Origin: Bacillota bacterium
GTDB lineage: Bacteria; Bacillota; SHA-98; UBA4971
Reading direction: 5' to 3'
DNA: 64,000 nucleotides
Assembly (NCBI GenBank): GCA_035593725.1
Contig: DAOSZN010000010.1
Coordinates: 2,308 to 66,307, forward strand
Shown here: positions 8,929 through 17,149 of the stretch, in pieces
Numbering within the stretch: the stretch's first letter is position 1
How the letters are laid out: each line of letters begins with the position of its first letter
Notes under the pieces: model-generated
What the model saw: only the letters and a program-made list of their open reading frames with translations
Databases searched by the model: none
What the model was told of the DNA's origin: nothing
Translations under genes and position numbers: made by a program

Positions 8929-9234
8929 GTGGAAGAGACTTTAAAGACGATAGTCAGGATAATCGTGGAGACTGCAGATCCCGACAAAATCATCCTTTTC
9001 GGTTCGAGGAGCCGTAAAGGATGGCCTGAAGACAGCGACTACGACATCCTCGTGATAAAAGAAGGCATATATCACAGAAGAAGACTCACTCAAGAAATCT
9101 ATCGAGCATTATCCGGGGTTCCCGTTGCTATAGATATAGTGTTGGAGACGCCGGAGAGACTGGCTCGGTACAGCGATACGCCTGGACTTGTTTACGCCGA
9201 AGCATTGAAAGGTCGTGTCCTTTATGAAAGATAA
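8929..9234 (+). CDS. Nucleotidyltransferase (MNT-type antitoxin)
   Basis: ILFGSRSRKG...DSDYDILVI minimal nucleotidyltransferase motif (GS...D.D); GTG start with GAAAAGGAGG SD. Confidence 0.7.
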   Translation: MEETLKTIVRIIVETADPDKIILFGSRSRKGWPEDSDYDILVIKEGIYHRRRLTQEIYRALSGVPVAIDIVLETPERLARYSDTPGLVYAEALKGRVLYER

Positions 9235-9616
9235 TCCGTGGGAGATGTGGATTCGAAGGGCAAGAAGCAATCTTGTCAGAGCGAAACAGGGGAGACAGTG
9301 CGATGACGTTTTGTATGAGGATCTCTGTTTTGATGCTCAACAAGCAGCTGAAAAGTGTCTGAAAGGGCTTTTGATATATCTTGGTCGGAACGCGCCGAGG
9401 ACCCATTCCATCGGACATCTGCTCAACCTCATCAGGGAAAGCGGCAAGGTCACTGTTCCGCCTGAGGTCACAGAGGCGGTGATCCTTAATGAGTACGCTG
9501 TCACCACTCGTTATCCGGGGGATTGGGAACCGGTGACTCGCGAAGAGTATGAAGAAGCGGTAAGGATAGCTGATGAGATCTGGAACTGGGTCACAGGCAT
9601 TACCGGCTACGCCTAA
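9224..9616 (+). CDS. HEPN-domain protein (HepT-like toxin)
   Basis: Overlaps the MNT stop by 11 nt; R-X5-H motif (RTHSIGH), ~130 aa; typical MNT/HEPN pairing. Confidence 0.65.
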   Translation: MKDNPWEMWIRRARSNLVRAKQGRQCDDVLYEDLCFDAQQAAEKCLKGLLIYLGRNAPRTHSIGHLLNLIRESGKVTVPPEVTEAVILNEYAVTTRYPGDWEPVTREEYEEAVRIADEIWNWVTGITGYA

Positions 9617-9954: not shown

Positions 9955-11370
9955 GTGGCAAGTATGTCCAAGATTCTCATTCGCGGCGGTCAAGTTGTTA
10001 CCATGAACGAGAAACAAGAAATCCTGGAACATGCTGATATCTTGATTGACGGACGCGTAATTGCCTCTGTAACGCCAATGAGTGAGGGGTCCGGAGGGTC
10101 AAAAGATATGTCGGGAGAAGGCTGTGAGAGCAGCACACGCCTTCATGATGTTGACATGATTATCAATGCGCGGGATAAAGTCGTCATGCCGGGCTTTATT
10201 CAGTCCCATGTCCATCTTTGCCAGACCCTTTTTCGCGGCCAGGCAGATGATCTTGAGCTTATGGATTGGTTGAAGCTTCGCATATGGCCACTGGAGGGTG
10301 CGCATGACGAGGACAGTATTTATTGGTCTGCAATGCTGGGAATCACTGAGCTGATTAAAGGTGGGACTACCTCCATCATTGACATGGAGACCGTCCATCA
10401 CACAGACAGAGCGTTTTCCGCTATTGACGATTCCGGAATTCGTGCCACATCAGGCAAGGTCATGATGGACTACGGGGATGATGTGCCTCCTACACTCATG
10501 GAGTCCACAAAGGATTCATTGAATGAGAGCGAGGCGCTGATGAACAAATGGCACATGCATGACGGAGGCAGGATTAGATACGCTTTTGCGCCGAGGTTCG
10601 TCGTGTCCTGTACAGATCAGCTCCTTGTCCGTGTGCGAGATATGGCGAAGGCCTCCGGTGTACTTGTCCATACCCATGCTTCTGAGAACAAGGGAGAGAT
10701 TGAAGTTGTTATGGCAGACAGGGGCATGAGGAACATCAAGTGCTTAAAGGAACTTGGGCTCTTAGGCCCCGGTGTTGTGCTGGCTCACTGCATTTGGCTG
10801 GATGATGAGGAGATGGAGCTTCTCAGGGATTCCGGGACAAAAGTAGTTCACTGTCCGTCCTCGAACCTTAAGCTTGCTTCAGGTGTGGCAAAAATCCCGG
10901 AAATGCTGGATATAGGTATCCATGTGTCGTTGGGCGCTGACGGAGCGCCGTGTAACAATAACTTGGATGTATTTCAGGAAATGAGACTTGCAGCTTTAAT
11001 CCACAAACCCCGTCTGGGACCTACTGCAATGCCTGCCGGGACAGTCCTGGAAATGGCGACGAAAGGCGGGGCCAAGGCTATGGGAATTGAGGATGAGGTC
11101 GGCAGCATAGAGCCGGGGAAACGCGCGGATATCATCATTCTCGACTTGAATCAGGCGCATGCTGCGCCCACTCAAAATGTAGACCTCATATCCCGCATAG
11201 TATATGAGGCTTCTTCAGCTGATGTTGAGACTACGATTGTCGATGGCCGTGTGCTGATGCATCAGAGGAAACTTACTGCCATCAGTGAGCAAGAAGTGGT
11301 GCGTGAGGCTAACAAAGCCTTAGAAAGAGCGCTCAGACGTTCCGGGTGTGCTCCGTCTGGCGAGAGATGA
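9955..11370 (+). CDS. Amidohydrolase, MtaD (5-methylthioadenosine/S-adenosylhomocysteine deaminase) family
   Basis: HVHLCQT (HxH), HTHASE, HCPSSNLKLASG, LGADGAPCNNNLDVFQEMRLAALI closely parallel the TM0936/MtaD family; start GTG 9955 or ATG 9964. Confidence 0.7.
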   Translation: MASMSKILIRGGQVVTMNEKQEILEHADILIDGRVIASVTPMSEGSGGSKDMSGEGCESSTRLHDVDMIINARDKVVMPGFIQSHVHLCQTLFRGQADDLELMDWLKLRIWPLEGAHDEDSIYWSAMLGITELIKGGTTSIIDMETVHHTDRAFSAIDDSGIRATSGKVMMDYGDDVPPTLMESTKDSLNESEALMNKWHMHDGGRIRYAFAPRFVVSCTDQLLVRVRDMAKASGVLVHTHASENKGEIEVVMADRGMRNIKCLKELGLLGPGVVLAHCIWLDDEEMELLRDSGTKVVHCPSSNLKLASGVAKIPEMLDIGIHVSLGADGAPCNNNLDVFQEMRLAALIHKPRLGPTAMPAGTVLEMATKGGAKAMGIEDEVGSIEPGKRADIIILDLNQAHAAPTQNVDLISRIVYEASSADVETTIVDGRVLMHQRKLTAISEQEVVREANKALERALRRSGCAPSGER

Positions 11371-11422: not shown

Positions 11423-12175
11423 GTGTTGACTTGTGAGGAAGAGGCACGCTATGCGAGGCAGATTGTGATTCATCAGATCGGCAAGGAAGGGCAGGAGAAA
11501 TTGAAGTCGTCAAAGGTTCTTGTTGTCGGTGCAGGCGGGTTAGGATCTCCTTCCGCCATGTACTTGGCATGCGCAGGTGTGGGCACAATCGGCCTTGTAG
11601 ATGATGACACAGTCAGTATTTCCAATTTGCAGCGACAGATCCTCCATGATTCAGACAGCCTTGGGATGAAGAAGGTGGAATCAGCCAAGAGGACACTTGA
11701 ACGTCTTAACCCCCATGTGTGTGTAGAGACCTATGATACGAGACTTTCGAGAGAATGCGTAAAAGACATAATCGCCGGGTACGACCTGGTGGTGGATGCA
11801 GTGGATAACCTGAAAACAAGGTGCCTGGTGAACGATACTTGTCAAGAACTGAAAAAACCCTTGATAGAAGCCGGGGTAATGCACTTTGACGGGATGATTC
11901 TTACCATATTGCCTGGGAAAGGCCCATGCTTTAGGTGTGTCTTCCCGTCTCCTCCGCCGGAGGATGCAGCCGGGAAGGCCGGCGGGACCGGCATATTCGG
12001 AGCAATTCCCGGCATAGTCGGTTGTATGGAGGCTGTCGAGGCAGTGAAGGTTCTTCTTGACATAGGAAACCCCCTTGTCGGGAGACTGCTCTTATTCAGC
12101 GGTTTGGACATGACCTGGAATGAAATCAAGGTATCTCAGAATCCTGATTGCCCGGTTTGCGGTAAGGTGTCTTAG
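11423..12175 (+). CDS. ThiF/MoeB/HesA-family adenylyltransferase (E1-like)
   Basis: ARYARQI, VLVVGAGGLGSP nucleotide-binding motif, CxxC...CPVCG zinc motif. Confidence 0.8.
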   Translation: MLTCEEEARYARQIVIHQIGKEGQEKLKSSKVLVVGAGGLGSPSAMYLACAGVGTIGLVDDDTVSISNLQRQILHDSDSLGMKKVESAKRTLERLNPHVCVETYDTRLSRECVKDIIAGYDLVVDAVDNLKTRCLVNDTCQELKKPLIEAGVMHFDGMILTILPGKGPCFRCVFPSPPPEDAAGKAGGTGIFGAIPGIVGCMEAVEAVKVLLDIGNPLVGRLLLFSGLDMTWNEIKVSQNPDCPVCGKVS

Positions 12176-12554: not shown

Positions 12555-13037
12555 ATGGATAAGCTGAAAGTCATTCTGGTCCATGATGGTTCAAGCGGAA
12601 GCGGGGCAAGTCCGGATCCGGATGCCCTCCCTGAAGGCATAGAGGTTGTGGGGAGTCTTAGGATAGAAGGATTTGGCGGAAGAGGAGGTCCTCGCGACGC
12701 GAGGCAACTAATCTCAGGTAAGGCCGGTCCGAATATCGGCGTAGAAGAAAGTCTTGCCGGGTCAGCCGAAAAAAGTCGAAAGCATGAGTCGTCCCGGCAA
12801 GCATTTCTACCGAATGCCCATGAAGAAATCGAGGATCGTCCGGTAAGCCTTACCAGGACAGAATTGGAAGTGCTGAGACTATTGGTCAAAGGCCAGCAGA
12901 ATAAGGAAATCGCTGATGAAATGTTTATCAGTGTCAATACCGTCAAGAGCCATGTGTCCAGCATTCTCAGGAAGCTGCGCGTAAAGAATCGGGCCCAAGC
13001 TGTGAGATATGTGTACAAGTGCGGTTTGTGGCAATGA
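12555..13037 (+). CDS. LuxR-family HTH transcriptional regulator with degenerate N-terminal domain
   Basis: C-terminal LTRTELEVLRLLVKGQQNKEIADEMFISVNTVKSHVSSILRKL (LuxR/FixJ HTH). N-terminus is Gly/Ser-rich and lacks clear receiver residues. TGnTATAAT extended -10 about 90 nt upstream. Confidence 0.7.
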   Translation: MDKLKVILVHDGSSGSGASPDPDALPEGIEVVGSLRIEGFGGRGGPRDARQLISGKAGPNIGVEESLAGSAEKSRKHESSRQAFLPNAHEEIEDRPVSLTRTELEVLRLLVKGQQNKEIADEMFISVNTVKSHVSSILRKLRVKNRAQAVRYVYKCGLWQ

Positions 13038-13217
13038 CGTGTGCTGCCCGACAGACTTCATAAATCGTTCCCTTGAGCCTAAAAAAGTCGTCCCTATGGG
13101 GAATGGCGGATCCTCTCAATACAAGCTAGACTGGAATTGCCAGAGACAACCTGAGCCGGCCCAGGCGCTATAGTACAAAGTTCGCCCGCTTGAAAGGCGG
13201 GGAAGGGGGTGCGCCAC

Positions 13218-13319
13218 ATGTACGGTAAGCTCGGCGGAAAGAAGATGAGATTTGACCTTGCAATCGATGGGTTTTGCTTTACCTTTAGGCTGTGGGGTCA
13301 TCGTATAACTATCGGCTAA
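13218..13319 (+). CDS. Candidate RiPP precursor peptide (33 aa: MYGKLGGKKMRFDLAIDGFCFTFRLWGHRITIG)
   Basis: Strong SD GGAAGGGGGTG 7 nt before ATG; immediately upstream of the rSAM/SPASM gene; followed by an 8-bp hairpin at 13339-13369. No homology claim. Confidence 0.25.
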   Translation: MYGKLGGKKMRFDLAIDGFCFTFRLWGHRITIG

Positions 13320-13435
13320 GGCCGCAGGGTGGGGTAGGCGGCAGACTCAAATGGGTTGCGGGTCTGCCGTCTGCTTACCTAAATCGCCGGGGAGATTTGC
13401 CCAGTGGAAACATAGTCGCGGTACGCGATGCGGAA

Positions 13436-14791
13436 ATGGGGGGAGTGGCGTTGGATCGGCACGTGGTCACCATTGCAAAAGGGATAGAAGTTGTGGAACA
13501 TGAAGGCCAACGGGTTCTCATAAACCCTGCTAACCGTGAGTGGATAAAACTTGCGGACTACGCATATGAGCTTGTTTTGAATCCGGAAGGGAAACCCGTG
13601 CGACAGTTGGTTCTTGATGAGGCTTTGCAAACCGGGGCAGAACCCGAGACTATTAAGAGTCTCTTTCACTATTTGAAGGAATACGGGTTTCTGGCTGAAA
13701 TCACTGATATGGTGACCCTTGCCCGTGCCTATCTCAATGTAACTGCGAGATGTAATCTAGCATGTCCTATGTGTTACTTTGCAAGTAATGACTCACCCGG
13801 GTATGACGAATTGTCTTGTGAAGCATTATTCCTGACCATTGATGCCTTATCCGAGGCCGGGGTCAGCAATCTTGCGATAAGCGGAGGCGAGCCGTTGCTC
13901 TTGCCGGATTTCCGCGACATATTGGATTATTCTACGAAGAAGTTCCCCATAATAACTATTCTCACAAATGGAACACTGATTACCCAGGAAGACGCAAGAC
14001 ATATATCAAAGGCCAATGCAAGGGTACAAGTAAGCATTGAATCCGCCAATCCACAGGTTCATGACGGTATTCGCGGGCCGGGCAGCTTCAATAGGGCAAT
14101 TGAAGGCGTTAAGATGCTGCTCAGGGCAGGAGTACATAACGTCGAGATCGTTCAAACTCTTACAAGAGACAGTATTCGCGAATCCAGAGGAGTTATTGAA
14201 TTAGCCGGAGCGCTGGGTGTAACCTATCATTTCAGTCTGTTCCTGCCCGTAGGCAGGGGCATATGCCACATGGGCGACATGGAGATCACCACAGATGAAT
14301 TGTTGAGACACTTCTTCAGGGTGTGTGACGCATCTCTTGAACGAAGACGGGAAGGGGAATTTCAGGCGCCTGACTTAAGTGATCTGACGTCTCCTTTTGA
14401 ACTCATTGTAAAGGAGCGATGCGGCGCAGGTAGTTCCATTATCAGCATAGAGCCTGACGGTAAGGTGTATCCTTGCCCTGTGCTGCATACCGAGGGTATG
14501 GCCTTAGGAAAACTGCCTGATGAGCCGGTATGGGAAATTGTGAGACGAGGCAGGCGCAAGATGCCTGATGTCACCCGACTTCCTGGGTGTTCAGACTGCG
14601 ATGTAGCTTTCTTCTGCGGAGGAGGGTGTCGTGCAAGGGCGTTCGCTCATACCGGCGATGTGTTTTCGAAAGATCCGTATTGCCGGTTCTATCAGCGTGT
14701 CTTACCGGCTTTTCTTTGGGAGTGGCGGGAAGACAGAGCTTTTTCCGACAACATGGAAGCGATCTTGTCCTCTGTTGGGAAAGGAGAATAA
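13436..14791 (+). CDS. Radical SAM/SPASM-domain peptide-modifying enzyme with N-terminal RRE(PqqD-like) extension
   Basis: CNLACPMCY (Cx3Cx2C), C-terminal SPASM Cys clusters (CGAG..., CPV..., GCSDCDVAFFCGGGCRARAF), ~100 aa N-terminal extension ending ...YGFLAEI resembling a PqqD-like RRE. Longest ORF starts at 13292 but that N-terminus looks non-coding (R/G-rich). Confidence 0.8.
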   Translation: MGGVALDRHVVTIAKGIEVVEHEGQRVLINPANREWIKLADYAYELVLNPEGKPVRQLVLDEALQTGAEPETIKSLFHYLKEYGFLAEITDMVTLARAYLNVTARCNLACPMCYFASNDSPGYDELSCEALFLTIDALSEAGVSNLAISGGEPLLLPDFRDILDYSTKKFPIITILTNGTLITQEDARHISKANARVQVSIESANPQVHDGIRGPGSFNRAIEGVKMLLRAGVHNVEIVQTLTRDSIRESRGVIELAGALGVTYHFSLFLPVGRGICHMGDMEITTDELLRHFFRVCDASLERRREGEFQAPDLSDLTSPFELIVKERCGAGSSIISIEPDGKVYPCPVLHTEGMALGKLPDEPVWEIVRRGRRKMPDVTRLPGCSDCDVAFFCGGGCRARAFAHTGDVFSKDPYCRFYQRVLPAFLWEWREDRAFSDNMEAILSSVGKGE

Positions 14792-14797
14792 ACAGCG

Positions 14798-15547
14798 GTG
14801 ACTGCGCTGACTTATGTCCTTCTCGGGATCTCACTTGTGGTAAGGCTTTTTGTGTCTTCGGAAGCCTGCAAGCGAAATGACGCGACAGATGCTACAACTT
14901 CAGTGGTTTTTCTCTCATTGATCTCCGCCGGGATTATACACCGGGGAGATCCCCTGGACATATACGGCCTTAGCTTGTCATCGTTATTCAGGTGTTCTTG
15001 GACTGCCATATTTCTTCTATGGGCAACCGCATTTACCATAGGCAGAGTGGCAAATGCTTTGATTCTTCATCCCGGCACAGGTTTTGAAGAGATGTTGGCA
15101 AGAGGGCATGCAAGCCCGGGTGGGGTTTATCTTTCTTTGAAAGATTACCCGAACCTCTGCGGGCTGATGTTAGGGGTACCTATGATATGGTCCCAGACCT
15201 TCATGGAGGAGTTCATATTCCGAGGGTTATTAGTCTCACTGGGCAAATGGTTCTATGGCTTGTTGGGGATATCAGAGCCTTTTGCCGGTTTTCTCAGTAT
15301 TATAGGTTCTGCGATTATGTTTGGGCTCGTTCATTTTGTCCCTGCATTTTACCGTTTAAGGGGAAAGAGCATCCTGATCCCGCTATATGCGTTTATCATG
15401 CCGACTACACTTGGGATGATTTTTTCCTTGCTGAACCGGGTGTCATATTCCCTTTGGTCCGGGTGGATTGTGCACTTCGGCCTGAACTATGCAGGGTTTA
15501 TGTGGGACAGGATATCAGGAAAATGGGAGGCGTATGGCCCGGCGTAA
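14798..15547 (+). CDS. CPBP-family (CAAX protease / Abi) intramembrane metalloprotease
   Basis: Motif 1 EEFIFRG (EExxxR), motif 2 FGLVHF (FxxxH), motif 3 HFGLN (HxxxN); multi-TM. Confidence 0.8.
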   Translation: MTALTYVLLGISLVVRLFVSSEACKRNDATDATTSVVFLSLISAGIIHRGDPLDIYGLSLSSLFRCSWTAIFLLWATAFTIGRVANALILHPGTGFEEMLARGHASPGGVYLSLKDYPNLCGLMLGVPMIWSQTFMEEFIFRGLLVSLGKWFYGLLGISEPFAGFLSIIGSAIMFGLVHFVPAFYRLRGKSILIPLYAFIMPTTLGMIFSLLNRVSYSLWSGWIVHFGLNYAGFMWDRISGKWEAYGPA

Positions 15548-16395
15548 GGTATTTGGGGGGATGGGTTACGTCTTATGTAGAGTTTTCCGATGTAACAAAG
15601 GTATATAGGGATTTCCGGGGTAGGCCTGTGGCCACTGGAATAGAGGGGCTTTCCTTTTCTATCCGGGAGGGGGAGACATTGGCGCTCCTCGGGCCTAACG
15701 GGTCAGGCAAGACTACAGTCATCAAGCTTCTTGCAGGCCTTCTAATTCCCACTTCAGGAAGGATCACAGTCGGTGGGGTCGATGTGATCCAAAATCCCAG
15801 GAAAGCATTGGAAAATGTGGGTGTAATGCTTGGTGACGCGCGTTCAATTTACTGGAGGCTCACTGCGCAAGATAATCTGGAGTACTTTGGTGCGCTAAGG
15901 GGAGTTTGCGGCAAGAAGTTACGGGAACGCATAGGGGCTTTGGCAAGGCTGTTGGATTTCGAAAGCGTTTTGACCAGGCGTGTGGGAGAGCTGTCCCGCG
16001 GTATGCGCCAGAGACTGCTTCTTGCCATAGCGCTGCTGCCTAATCCGCGCCTATTGATACTGGATGAACCTACATTCGGGCTTGATGTGCTATCCAGACA
16101 TGAGATCCGACGACTCCTTCGTGAAATCGTATCAACAAAACACTGCGCCATTGTTATCGCTACGCATCAGATGGAGGAAGCTGAGGAACTTGCCGGCCGC
16201 GTTTGTATCCTCAGGCGAGGCAAGGCAGTGGCTCTGGATACCGTGGAAGGTTTGACAAGGAAGATAAACGGGGCGAGAGACGGTCAGGTTGCATCATCGC
16301 TTTTGCTTGAGGAGGTATTCCTCGAGGTGACGAGGGAAGAAAGCAAAGGAAGGGCGGAAGTATTTCATGACAGGGCCGGCTATCCTTTGGGCTGA
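15523..16395 (+). CDS. ABC transporter ATP-binding protein
   Basis: Walker A GPNGSGKTT, ABC signature LSRGMRQR, Walker B LLILDEPT; overlaps CPBP gene end. Confidence 0.85.
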   Translation: MGGVWPGVRYLGGWVTSYVEFSDVTKVYRDFRGRPVATGIEGLSFSIREGETLALLGPNGSGKTTVIKLLAGLLIPTSGRITVGGVDVIQNPRKALENVGVMLGDARSIYWRLTAQDNLEYFGALRGVCGKKLRERIGALARLLDFESVLTRRVGELSRGMRQRLLLAIALLPNPRLLILDEPTFGLDVLSRHEIRRLLREIVSTKHCAIVIATHQMEEAEELAGRVCILRRGKAVALDTVEGLTRKINGARDGQVASSLLLEEVFLEVTREESKGRAEVFHDRAGYPLG

Positions 16396-17149
16396 ACTGA
16401 AAAGAGGTATGAAAAACCACTTGGCATATCCGGTTCAGGCTGCGTGTGAAATCATTACCGTGATATTCATTGCAATAGTCATACCGTCATTTACGGAAGG
16501 GTCTTTTCCCAGGGGCATCTCAGGCGTTGCGGTGGAAAGGCCGGAAAAGATCACTGCGTTTATCATGGTTTTTATTGCGCTCATCGGTCTTCAGATTGTC
16601 CATCGGGTGGTGAGGGAAGAGTCAGATCTTGGAACCCTTGAGCAATTGTGCCTTTCGCCCATTGGGTTGCCTTCTCTCATAATGTTCCGTTGTGCTGCTG
16701 ACACCATCAGGATGGCGCCGATTGTCCTAATAGTCGCAGGGATGGTTTCACCGCGTCAACAACTGGGCCAAATCCTTGTTATGGTGCCTGTGATCATCTT
16801 CTTCATGAACATAGGTATGCTTGGAATGGGTTTTTTGCTGGGTTCTCTTACGCTTGTTGCCAAACGCACCGGATTCATCCCGAACCTGGCAAGCCTTGCC
16901 TTATTACCGTTTGCCTTGTCTCCTTCCGGTGAAATGCCGTACATACTGAAAATTGCAGGCTCGATCGTGCCTTTTGCCCATGGGGTCAGATTAATGGAGC
17001 CTACGCTTAAAGGCTCTCCTGTTGCCTTATGGATACCGGATCTTCTCAAGCTGTGCCTTTTGAGTTGTTCATGGCTTATCCTTGGTATCCGGTGTTTCGT
17101 CATGGCTGAAAGATTTGCCAGACAGAGGGGGCTGCTTGGGAAACACTGA
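16367..17149 (+). CDS. ABC-2-type transporter permease
   Basis: 6-TM hydrophobic protein overlapping the ATPase gene by 29 nt. Confidence 0.6.
   Translation: MTGPAILWAELKRGMKNHLAYPVQAACEIITVIFIAIVIPSFTEGSFPRGISGVAVERPEKITAFIMVFIALIGLQIVHRVVREESDLGTLEQLCLSPIGLPSLIMFRCAADTIRMAPIVLIVAGMVSPRQQLGQILVMVPVIIFFMNIGMLGMGFLLGSLTLVAKRTGFIPNLASLALLPFALSPSGEMPYILKIAGSIVPFAHGVRLMEPTLKGSPVALWIPDLLKLCLLSCSWLILGIRCFVMAERFARQRGLLGKH

Follow-up and report, generated by a model that had tools for sequence, protein, structure and literature searches.

A conserved 33-residue peptide gene beside a radical-SAM/SPASM enzyme gene in uncultured Bacillota, encoding a probable RiPP precursor

Gene content of the cassette

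The window analysed here, a stretch of 64,000 nt of Bacillota DNA, carries at positions 13218..13319 (+) a short gene of 33 sense codons that runs from an ATG at 13218 to a TAA at 13317-13319 and encodes the peptide MYGKLGGKKMRFDLAIDGFCFTFRLWGHRITIG. It is the second member of a four-gene cassette that recurs in both clades of related loci and comprises a GerE/LuxR regulator, the peptide, a radical-SAM (rSAM)-SPASM enzyme with a predicted RRE, and a CPBP protease. The regulator gene (12555..13037, +; 160 aa; GerE/LuxR-family HTH, Pfam GerE 5e-23) lies directly upstream of the peptide gene and is found at the same position in L161, L162, L164, L166 and L168 of clade 1 and in L096, L097 and L099 of clade 2. 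On the other side, the gene of the predicted peptide maturase (13436..14791, +) specifies 451 aa when read from the ATG at 13436, with a TTG at 13451 as an alternative start, and is followed by the gene of a CPBP (Rce1-like) intramembrane protease (14798..15547, +; Pfam Rce1-like 8.5e-10). In the latter protein the catalytic motifs EEFIFR, FGLVH and HFGLN are intact, and its best NCBIfam CPBP matches reach 19-21 bits; its gene keeps a constant position in all loci inspected, in both clades, and is an obligate partner of the cassette.

The genes that follow are accessory. An ABC transporter ATPase (15523..16395, +; ABC_tran 5.1e-30; mechanical ORF 15187-16395) and an ABC-2 type permease of the same distribution (16367..17149, +; ABC2_membrane 3.8e-06) are missing in L162, L164 and all clade 2 loci; in clade 2, obg and nadD-like genes come after the cassette in place of the transporter. 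In clade 1 the loci show synteny with UPF0182, OGG and SIR2 genes. Neither an mftB-like gene nor other cofactor-pathway genes were found within the cassette. Where clade 1 loci have no ABC transporter, the CPBP and UPF0182 genes are separated by an ORF of 74-77 aa that is unannotated and has no Pfam match (8211-8435 in L162; 8587-8820 in L164). Upstream of the regulator, a ThiF-family (E1-like) gene (11423-12175, +) is present here and in L166 and is probably outside the cassette, since it is absent from L162, L164 and clade 2.

Conservation of the peptide gene

The 33-codon ORF at 13218, its Shine-Dalgarno sequence and the inverted repeat downstream are all present as the initial annotation had described them, except that the spacer measures 6 nt (CGCCAC) and not 7 nt. 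The Shine-Dalgarno sequence, AAGGGGGTG at 13203-13211, agrees with AAGGAGGTG at 8/9 positions; the mechanical ORF list also holds a GTG-extended form of the peptide ORF, 36 aa long and starting at 13209. The 5' UTR (13133..13217, +) is conserved, with a mean column identity of 73%, and contains a small hairpin at about 13184-13202, followed by the Shine-Dalgarno sequence and the spacer. The pairs predicted in the 5' UTR are kept, but 0/14 covary, and we therefore make no claim of a structured RNA there.

Conservation was assessed in 17 representative loci with upstream sequence, which were examined closely and whose rSAM enzymes share 33-76% identity. The initial annotation had named the absence of the microORF from orthologous loci as grounds for abandoning its proposal; on the contrary, all 17 have a 33-codon homologue ahead of their related rSAM/SPASM gene. 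Every homologue has exactly 33 codons, ends in T[IV]G-stop and is preceded by AAGGRGGTG and a 6-nt spacer. The start codon, at the same position throughout, is ATG or GTG, and is ATC in L166 and L167 (5866-5868), where the Shine-Dalgarno sequence and its spacing are unaltered and the change could reflect either a variant in the sequence or non-canonical initiation. The peptides split into two clades that mirror the two clades of enzymes. In clade 1 (enzymes 43-76% identical) they follow the pattern MYGK[LI]GGK..DLAIDG[FY]C.TF.LWGH.[IV]T[IV]G, and MFEVTAGRKRRMNVSVNSFCVNFILWGYLITIG is an example from clade 2 (enzymes 33-36% identical); G7, C20, F23, W26, G27, T31 and G33 are invariant across both.

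Variable alignment columns within the ORF were distributed over the three codon positions as 14/10/30 in clade 1 and 17/10/27 in clade 2, whereas the same count on the flanking conserved DNA gave 38/33/30 and 20/19/16, respectively, with no periodicity. Pairwise dN/dS values for the peptide lie between 0.03 and 0.16, with synonymous sites often saturated, and Arg and Ile codons are exchanged synonymously (for example CGT/CGG/AGA and ATA/ATC/ATT). The third-position bias, the low dN/dS values and the conserved length of 33 codons together identify the ORF at 13218-13319 as a protein-coding gene on which purifying selection is strong. Since the non-coding DNA on either side also shows good conservation (73% column identity), conservation of the DNA alone is no proof of coding; it is nevertheless extremely improbable that the frame is open by chance in a conserved promoter region or non-coding leader RNA, given that the three-base periodicity of substitutions is confined to the ORF, that the frame stays open at identical length in 14 distinct sequences, and that the Arg and Ile codon swaps are synonymous. 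Our confidence is accordingly high that this ORF represents a true peptide gene, conserved and linked to the rSAM enzyme.

In 16/16 comparisons conservation of the peptide exceeds that of the enzyme (for example 79-88% versus 45-49% identity), and its C-terminal 15 residues are more conserved than its N-terminal 18, with identities between the clades of 53-67% and 17-28%, respectively. The C-terminal half is hydrophobic, and positions 12, 14 and 16 carry alternating hydrophobic residues in both clades. We divide the peptide into a putative leader (residues 1-18) and a putative core (residues 19-33, FCFTFRLWGHRITIG), the boundary after residue 18 being a guess. A core that is better conserved than its leader is atypical of antimicrobial RiPPs, and the pattern of conservation resembles that of PqqA, MftA or SCIFF peptides more than that of a fast-evolving bacteriocin. 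The peptide co-occurs and co-diversifies with the enzyme, and the cassette as a whole, with or without the ABC-2 exporter, is vertically inherited.

Public annotation overlooks this gene. On an identical public JGI contig (L168, 3001-4500) no peptide is called, because the rSAM gene is called from 13292 and so extends over the 3' end of the peptide gene; in other loci the peptide is called only occasionally, as a 'hypothetical protein', and is otherwise absent from the annotation, a failure that is systematic. An exhaustive search of 1.84 billion representative proteins returned one 50%-identity cluster homologous to the peptide (E 3.6e-10) and nothing else, and no Pfam or NCBIfam model matched it, even at E up to 10.

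Putative promoter and conserved hairpin around the peptide gene

Upstream of the 5' UTR, a -10-like hexamer, TAGACT (13127..13132, +), is invariant in 10/10 clade 1 loci, and a 20-bp box, AAGTCGTCCCTATGGGGAAT (13085..13104), shows partial dyad symmetry and consists of invariant or near-invariant alignment columns. In both clades a conserved box, AARTCRYCCNTTYGGGNAAT, is followed at a distance of 22 nt by the -10-like hexamer (TAGACT or TATGCT); a clade 2 example of box and hexamer is found at about 5570-5620 of L097. A consensus sigma-70 scan yielded no full promoter and no consensus -35, and to judge from this lack of a -35 element the promoter is probably activator-dependent. The box at 13085-13104 is a candidate, and likely, operator of the adjacent GerE/LuxR regulator.

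Between the peptide and enzyme genes lies an RNA stem-loop (13327..13380, +) that begins 8 nt past the stop codon (13319). Its centre is the 8-bp inverted repeat reported initially, CGGCAGAC (13339-13346) and GTCTGCCG (13362-13369), which are exact complements; the stem is however longer than those 8 bp, as the minimum free energy fold pairs 13327-13348 with 13360-13380 in about 21 bp with one bulge and encloses an 11-nt loop, AAAUGGGUUGC (13349-13359). The fold has an energy of -37.8 kcal/mol (z = -3.39), and 2/200 shuffled sequences fold as well. In an alignment of ten clade 1 loci, 95.6% of the cells of 16 stem pairs are paired and 11/16 pairs show compensatory changes, a result matched by 0/500 shuffles, while controls in which the alignment was slid drop to 40-52% paired. 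Many of the pairs are G.U, which restricts the structure to the sense-strand RNA. The hairpin starts 1-14 nt past the stop codon and is the most stable 56-nt intergenic window in 10/11 clade 1 loci, and in most of them its stability exceeds that of coding windows by 3-5 SD. The element is a conserved sense-strand RNA structure. In contrast to the covarying stem, its loop, CAAnnGGGUUGC, keeps its sequence in 9/10 loci of clade 1; in L161 and in clade 2, different strong hairpins lie between the two genes.

The hairpin is no canonical intrinsic (Rho-independent) terminator: the stem is present and the U tract is absent, a terminator scan of the + strand over 12900-13600 came back empty, and the tails of the homologues lack T runs. 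Within the same interval a search of Rfam recovered no RNA family, only a single match at chance level (E = 6). Nor is the hairpin a repeated genomic element, its exact loop motif occurring once in the window and near-matches occurring at chance level. Complementarity of the loop to GACAACC in the 5' UTR (about 13146-13152) is weak and unconvincing. An ORF at 13351-13503 (MGCGS...) was likewise set aside, its likeness to the N-termini of P0008 and P0012 being that of conserved hairpin-loop DNA whose frame relation to the rSAM gene varies; P0008 and P0012 are themselves over-extended, to a start codon within the hairpin loop.

By analogy, the hairpin may act as a partial terminator or as a 3'-end stabiliser that raises the amount of precursor over that of the enzyme. 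Stem-loops between precursor and modification genes are known from RiPP operons such as sboA-albA and nisA-nisB, and like these the hairpin described here, which is conserved with covariation, immediately follows the stop codon of the precursor and precedes the maturase gene; it differs in its lack of a U tract and its conserved loop. A short ORF followed by a strong conserved hairpin upstream of an enzyme gene is also the geometry of an attenuator, in which the peptide would be a regulatory leader peptide (uORF) whose translation, together with the hairpin, attenuates rSAM expression and whose product has no role. This we consider very unlikely: attenuator peptides usually keep just a few regulatory codons, whereas here almost all residues are under purifying selection (dN/dS 0.03-0.16) and both length and C-terminus are fixed. 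Furthermore, neither an alternative anti-terminator pairing nor a U tract was found, and the hairpin stands at very different distances from the enzyme start, the intergenic regions measuring 67 to 326 nt.

The enzyme and the putative modification of the peptide

A 499-aa rSAM ORF starting at GTG 13292 in the mechanical ORF list overlaps the peptide gene. The initial annotation had preferred the start at 13436 over that at 13292, and this choice is borne out: the longer form is an over-extension, because in 13/17 loci its frame is closed by a stop that lies past the peptide gene and ahead of the conserved N-terminus and, in an alignment of 20 orthologues, conservation of the enzyme begins only at about VVTIAKGIEV. 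As a start codon TTG 13451 is as good as ATG 13436: its Shine-Dalgarno sequence (GGGGGAG, 5 nt upstream) is the better one, and in the alignment it coincides with the Met of L081. The protein matches Radical_SAM (1.6e-26) and SPASM (2.3e-06) of Pfam. Across 26 sequences the CX3CX2C radical-SAM motif (C106, C110, C113) is invariant in 26/26, and the seven-Cys SPASM motif (C329, C347, C385, C388, C394, C398, C416) is likewise invariant; an eighth cluster-ligand Cys, the fourth ligand of one auxiliary cluster, is not conserved and occurs in 17/26.

The AF2 model of the enzyme (pLDDT 85, pTM 0.74) begins with four strands (10-40) and helices at 41-48, 55-66 and 70-82. With the whole enzyme as query, Foldseek aligned 465-477 columns to the RRE-containing maturases CteB (7.7e-18), TigE and SuiB, and matched SkfB at 2.2e-17; in agreement with these structural matches, a sequence search of the PDB ranked CteB (1.6e-18) and SkfB (2e-18) best. 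Judged by the model, the N-terminal domain is likely an RRE, although no Pfam PqqD/RRE model matched the N-terminal 101 residues, even at E up to 10. All curated NCBIfam maturase models score far below their cut-offs (AhbD 140.8/500, MftC 131.5/265, StsB 129.7/625, WgkB 121.8/650, AlbA 86.7/850, PapB 80.4/340 and SkfB 68.4/300, with PqqE below its cut-off of 381), which bars any transfer of the chemistry by homology. Used as the query of a protein search, the enzyme retrieved about 20 close clusters at 40-82% identity, each of them from uncultured Bacillota or metagenomes.

We conclude that the ORF at 13218-13319 quite probably encodes a 33-residue RiPP precursor that is the substrate of the neighbouring rSAM enzyme, because the peptide adjoins the enzyme in every locus, the clades of the two coincide and the enzyme has the architecture of a peptide maturase. 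The hydrophobic C-terminal half, the presence of the CPBP protease as another obligate partner and the unusual conservation of the whole peptide would also suit a small protein that is real but is not the rSAM substrate, such as a membrane-active toxin, or a signal that the GerE regulator senses or that the CPBP protease alone processes, with the rSAM enzyme acting on another substrate. We rate such an arrangement as improbable, in view of the maturase architecture with its predicted N-terminal RRE-like domain, the adjacency of peptide and enzyme in 17/17 representative loci and the lack of any other conserved candidate substrate gene in the cassette. A Cys-rich 54-aa ORF at 13009-13173 was considered as an alternative precursor and rejected: it is interrupted by stops or shifts in L081, L082, L164 and L166, and its Cys residues are not conserved.

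If the peptide is the substrate, its basic N-terminal half would dock on the enzyme's predicted RRE as a beta-strand, with residues 12, 14 and 16 alternately hydrophobic, and the enzyme would cross-link the highly conserved C-terminal 15 residues. The likeliest link would be a thioether that joins the invariant Cys20 to a C-H in a residue further downstream, with a cyclophane-type C-C bond at Phe23 or Trp26 as the alternative. The CPBP protease could then cut off the leader at the membrane or shield the producer; its peptidase role is only putative, since CPBP proteins are also known as bacteriocin immunity proteins. Where present, the ABC-2 pump would export the product. The hairpin would end part of the transcripts or guard the 3' end of a short precursor mRNA, so that precursor exceeds enzyme, and the GerE regulator would activate the promoter by way of the conserved box that precedes the -10 element.

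As to chemistry, we tentatively favour a single thioether at Cys20, which we place slightly short of even chances, and put cyclophane-type C-C links at F23 or W26 next. The lean towards a thioether comes from the invariance of Cys20, from the thioethers made by the nearest characterised relatives (CteB, SkfB and StsB) and from the eighth cluster-ligand Cys not being conserved (17/26). By comparison with the CteB structure, this non-conserved fourth Cys ligand would leave a possible open iron site for a substrate thiolate. The single Cys remarked on in the initial annotation is indeed the only one and is invariant, whereas the Lys-Trp link entertained there fares worse: a streptide-like bond of this kind is unlikely because no Lys is invariant, K4, K8 and K9 each being R or G in homologues and none lying in the conserved C-terminal half.

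Comparison with known systems places the cassette near several of them. CteA/CteB (thermocellin, a SCIFF-type ranthipeptide) and SkfA/SkfB likewise pair an RRE-rSAM-SPASM (or twitch) maturase with an adjacent short peptide gene. CteB and SkfB are however only 18-21% identical to the enzyme described here (CteB 18-19%), a ranthipeptide/SCIFF precursor has six Cys in about 45 residues against one here, the score falls below the PapB cut-off, and the obligate CPBP protease and the GerE regulator set this cassette apart from both systems. SCIFF peptides are highly conserved and vertically inherited. SkfA, the sporulation killing factor, is reported to carry a single thioether. Among the curated maturase models, that of StsB, from the StsA/StsB streptosactin system (NF045574), is the only one that aligns across the whole enzyme, N-terminal domain included (residues 7-429 to profile positions 5-427 of 466, E 1.4e-37), yet with 129.7 against a cut-off of 625 the enzyme is not a member, and the streptosactin precursor is unrelated in sequence to the peptide. 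Streptosactin loci are streptococcal and under quorum-sensing (shp/rgg) control. The enzyme also falls below the family cut-offs of the sactipeptide maturases (AlbA, SkfB, StsB), whose products carry thioethers from Cys sulfur to an alpha-carbon and whose substrates usually have several core Cys rather than the one found here.

PqqA/PqqE and MftA/MftC share with the present pair a tiny conserved precursor of fixed length beside an rSAM-SPASM enzyme, and in them the modification lies near the conserved C-terminus. MftC is the second-best NCBIfam maturase match, at 131.5 nevertheless well under its cut-off of 265; the peptide has neither Glu-X3-Tyr nor a C-terminal Val-Tyr and ends in TIG, not GVY, and the predicted RRE is fused to the enzyme instead of forming a separate MftB/PqqD protein. 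The C-terminal IDGxCGVY of MftA resembles the IDG[FY]C found here, a likeness that we treat as a lead only. In relation to streptide (StrB/SuiB), Trp26 is invariant here while the partner Lys is not, and SuiB is a weaker structural match than CteB. In triceptides (three-residue cyclophanes) an rSAM-SPASM enzyme cross-links Aromatic-X-X motifs from ring to beta-carbon; F23-x-[LV]25 and W26-G-x28 would fit such motifs. Among CPBP/Abi proteins, staphylococcal MroQ takes part in AgrD processing, and Abi proteins confer bacteriocin immunity; in both, as here, a membrane CPBP protein is tied to a small secreted-peptide system, and sequence assigns the present protease to neither group.

On this sequence evidence, the peptide and the enzyme appear to form a new rSAM-SPASM RiPP family outside every named family compared. 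In the openly accessible literature covered, we found neither the peptide motifs nor a description of an rSAM-CPBP peptide cassette, nor any report that pairs a CPBP protease with an rSAM maturase. The family is a concrete one, in which a defined 33-residue substrate candidate with invariant positions is matched by a cognate enzyme and by the CPBP protease as obligate partner, and it comes from uncultured anaerobic-digester Bacillota. It is unusual in its single Cys, its fixed length and C-terminus, and a core more conserved than the enzyme; each uncharacterised pair of rSAM-SPASM enzyme and precursor is a candidate for new cross-link chemistry. Because the putative core surpasses both leader and enzyme in conservation, the synteny is with housekeeping genes and the exporter is dispensable, the product might be, rather than a variable antimicrobial, a signalling molecule or peptide-derived cofactor that is inherited vertically throughout the lineage. 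It would be matured at the membrane by a dedicated CPBP protease and autoregulated through GerE/LuxR, and would bear an undescribed cross-link, for example one joining Cys20, or else Phe23/Trp26, to a residue close to the fixed C-terminus. We offer this last proposal as possible but doubtful.

Further upstream in the window, a purine riboswitch aptamer (RF00167; 9697-9800, +) was detected at 48.7 bits, above the gathering score, ahead of an amidohydrolase gene (9955-11370; Amidohydro_1, 5.9e-78). Before it, a nucleotidyltransferase gene (Polbeta/NTP_transf_2; 8929-9234) overlaps a HEPN gene (9215-9616, +; HEPN 2.4e-29), and this pair (8929-9616) has the arrangement of MNT-HEPN toxin-antitoxin modules.
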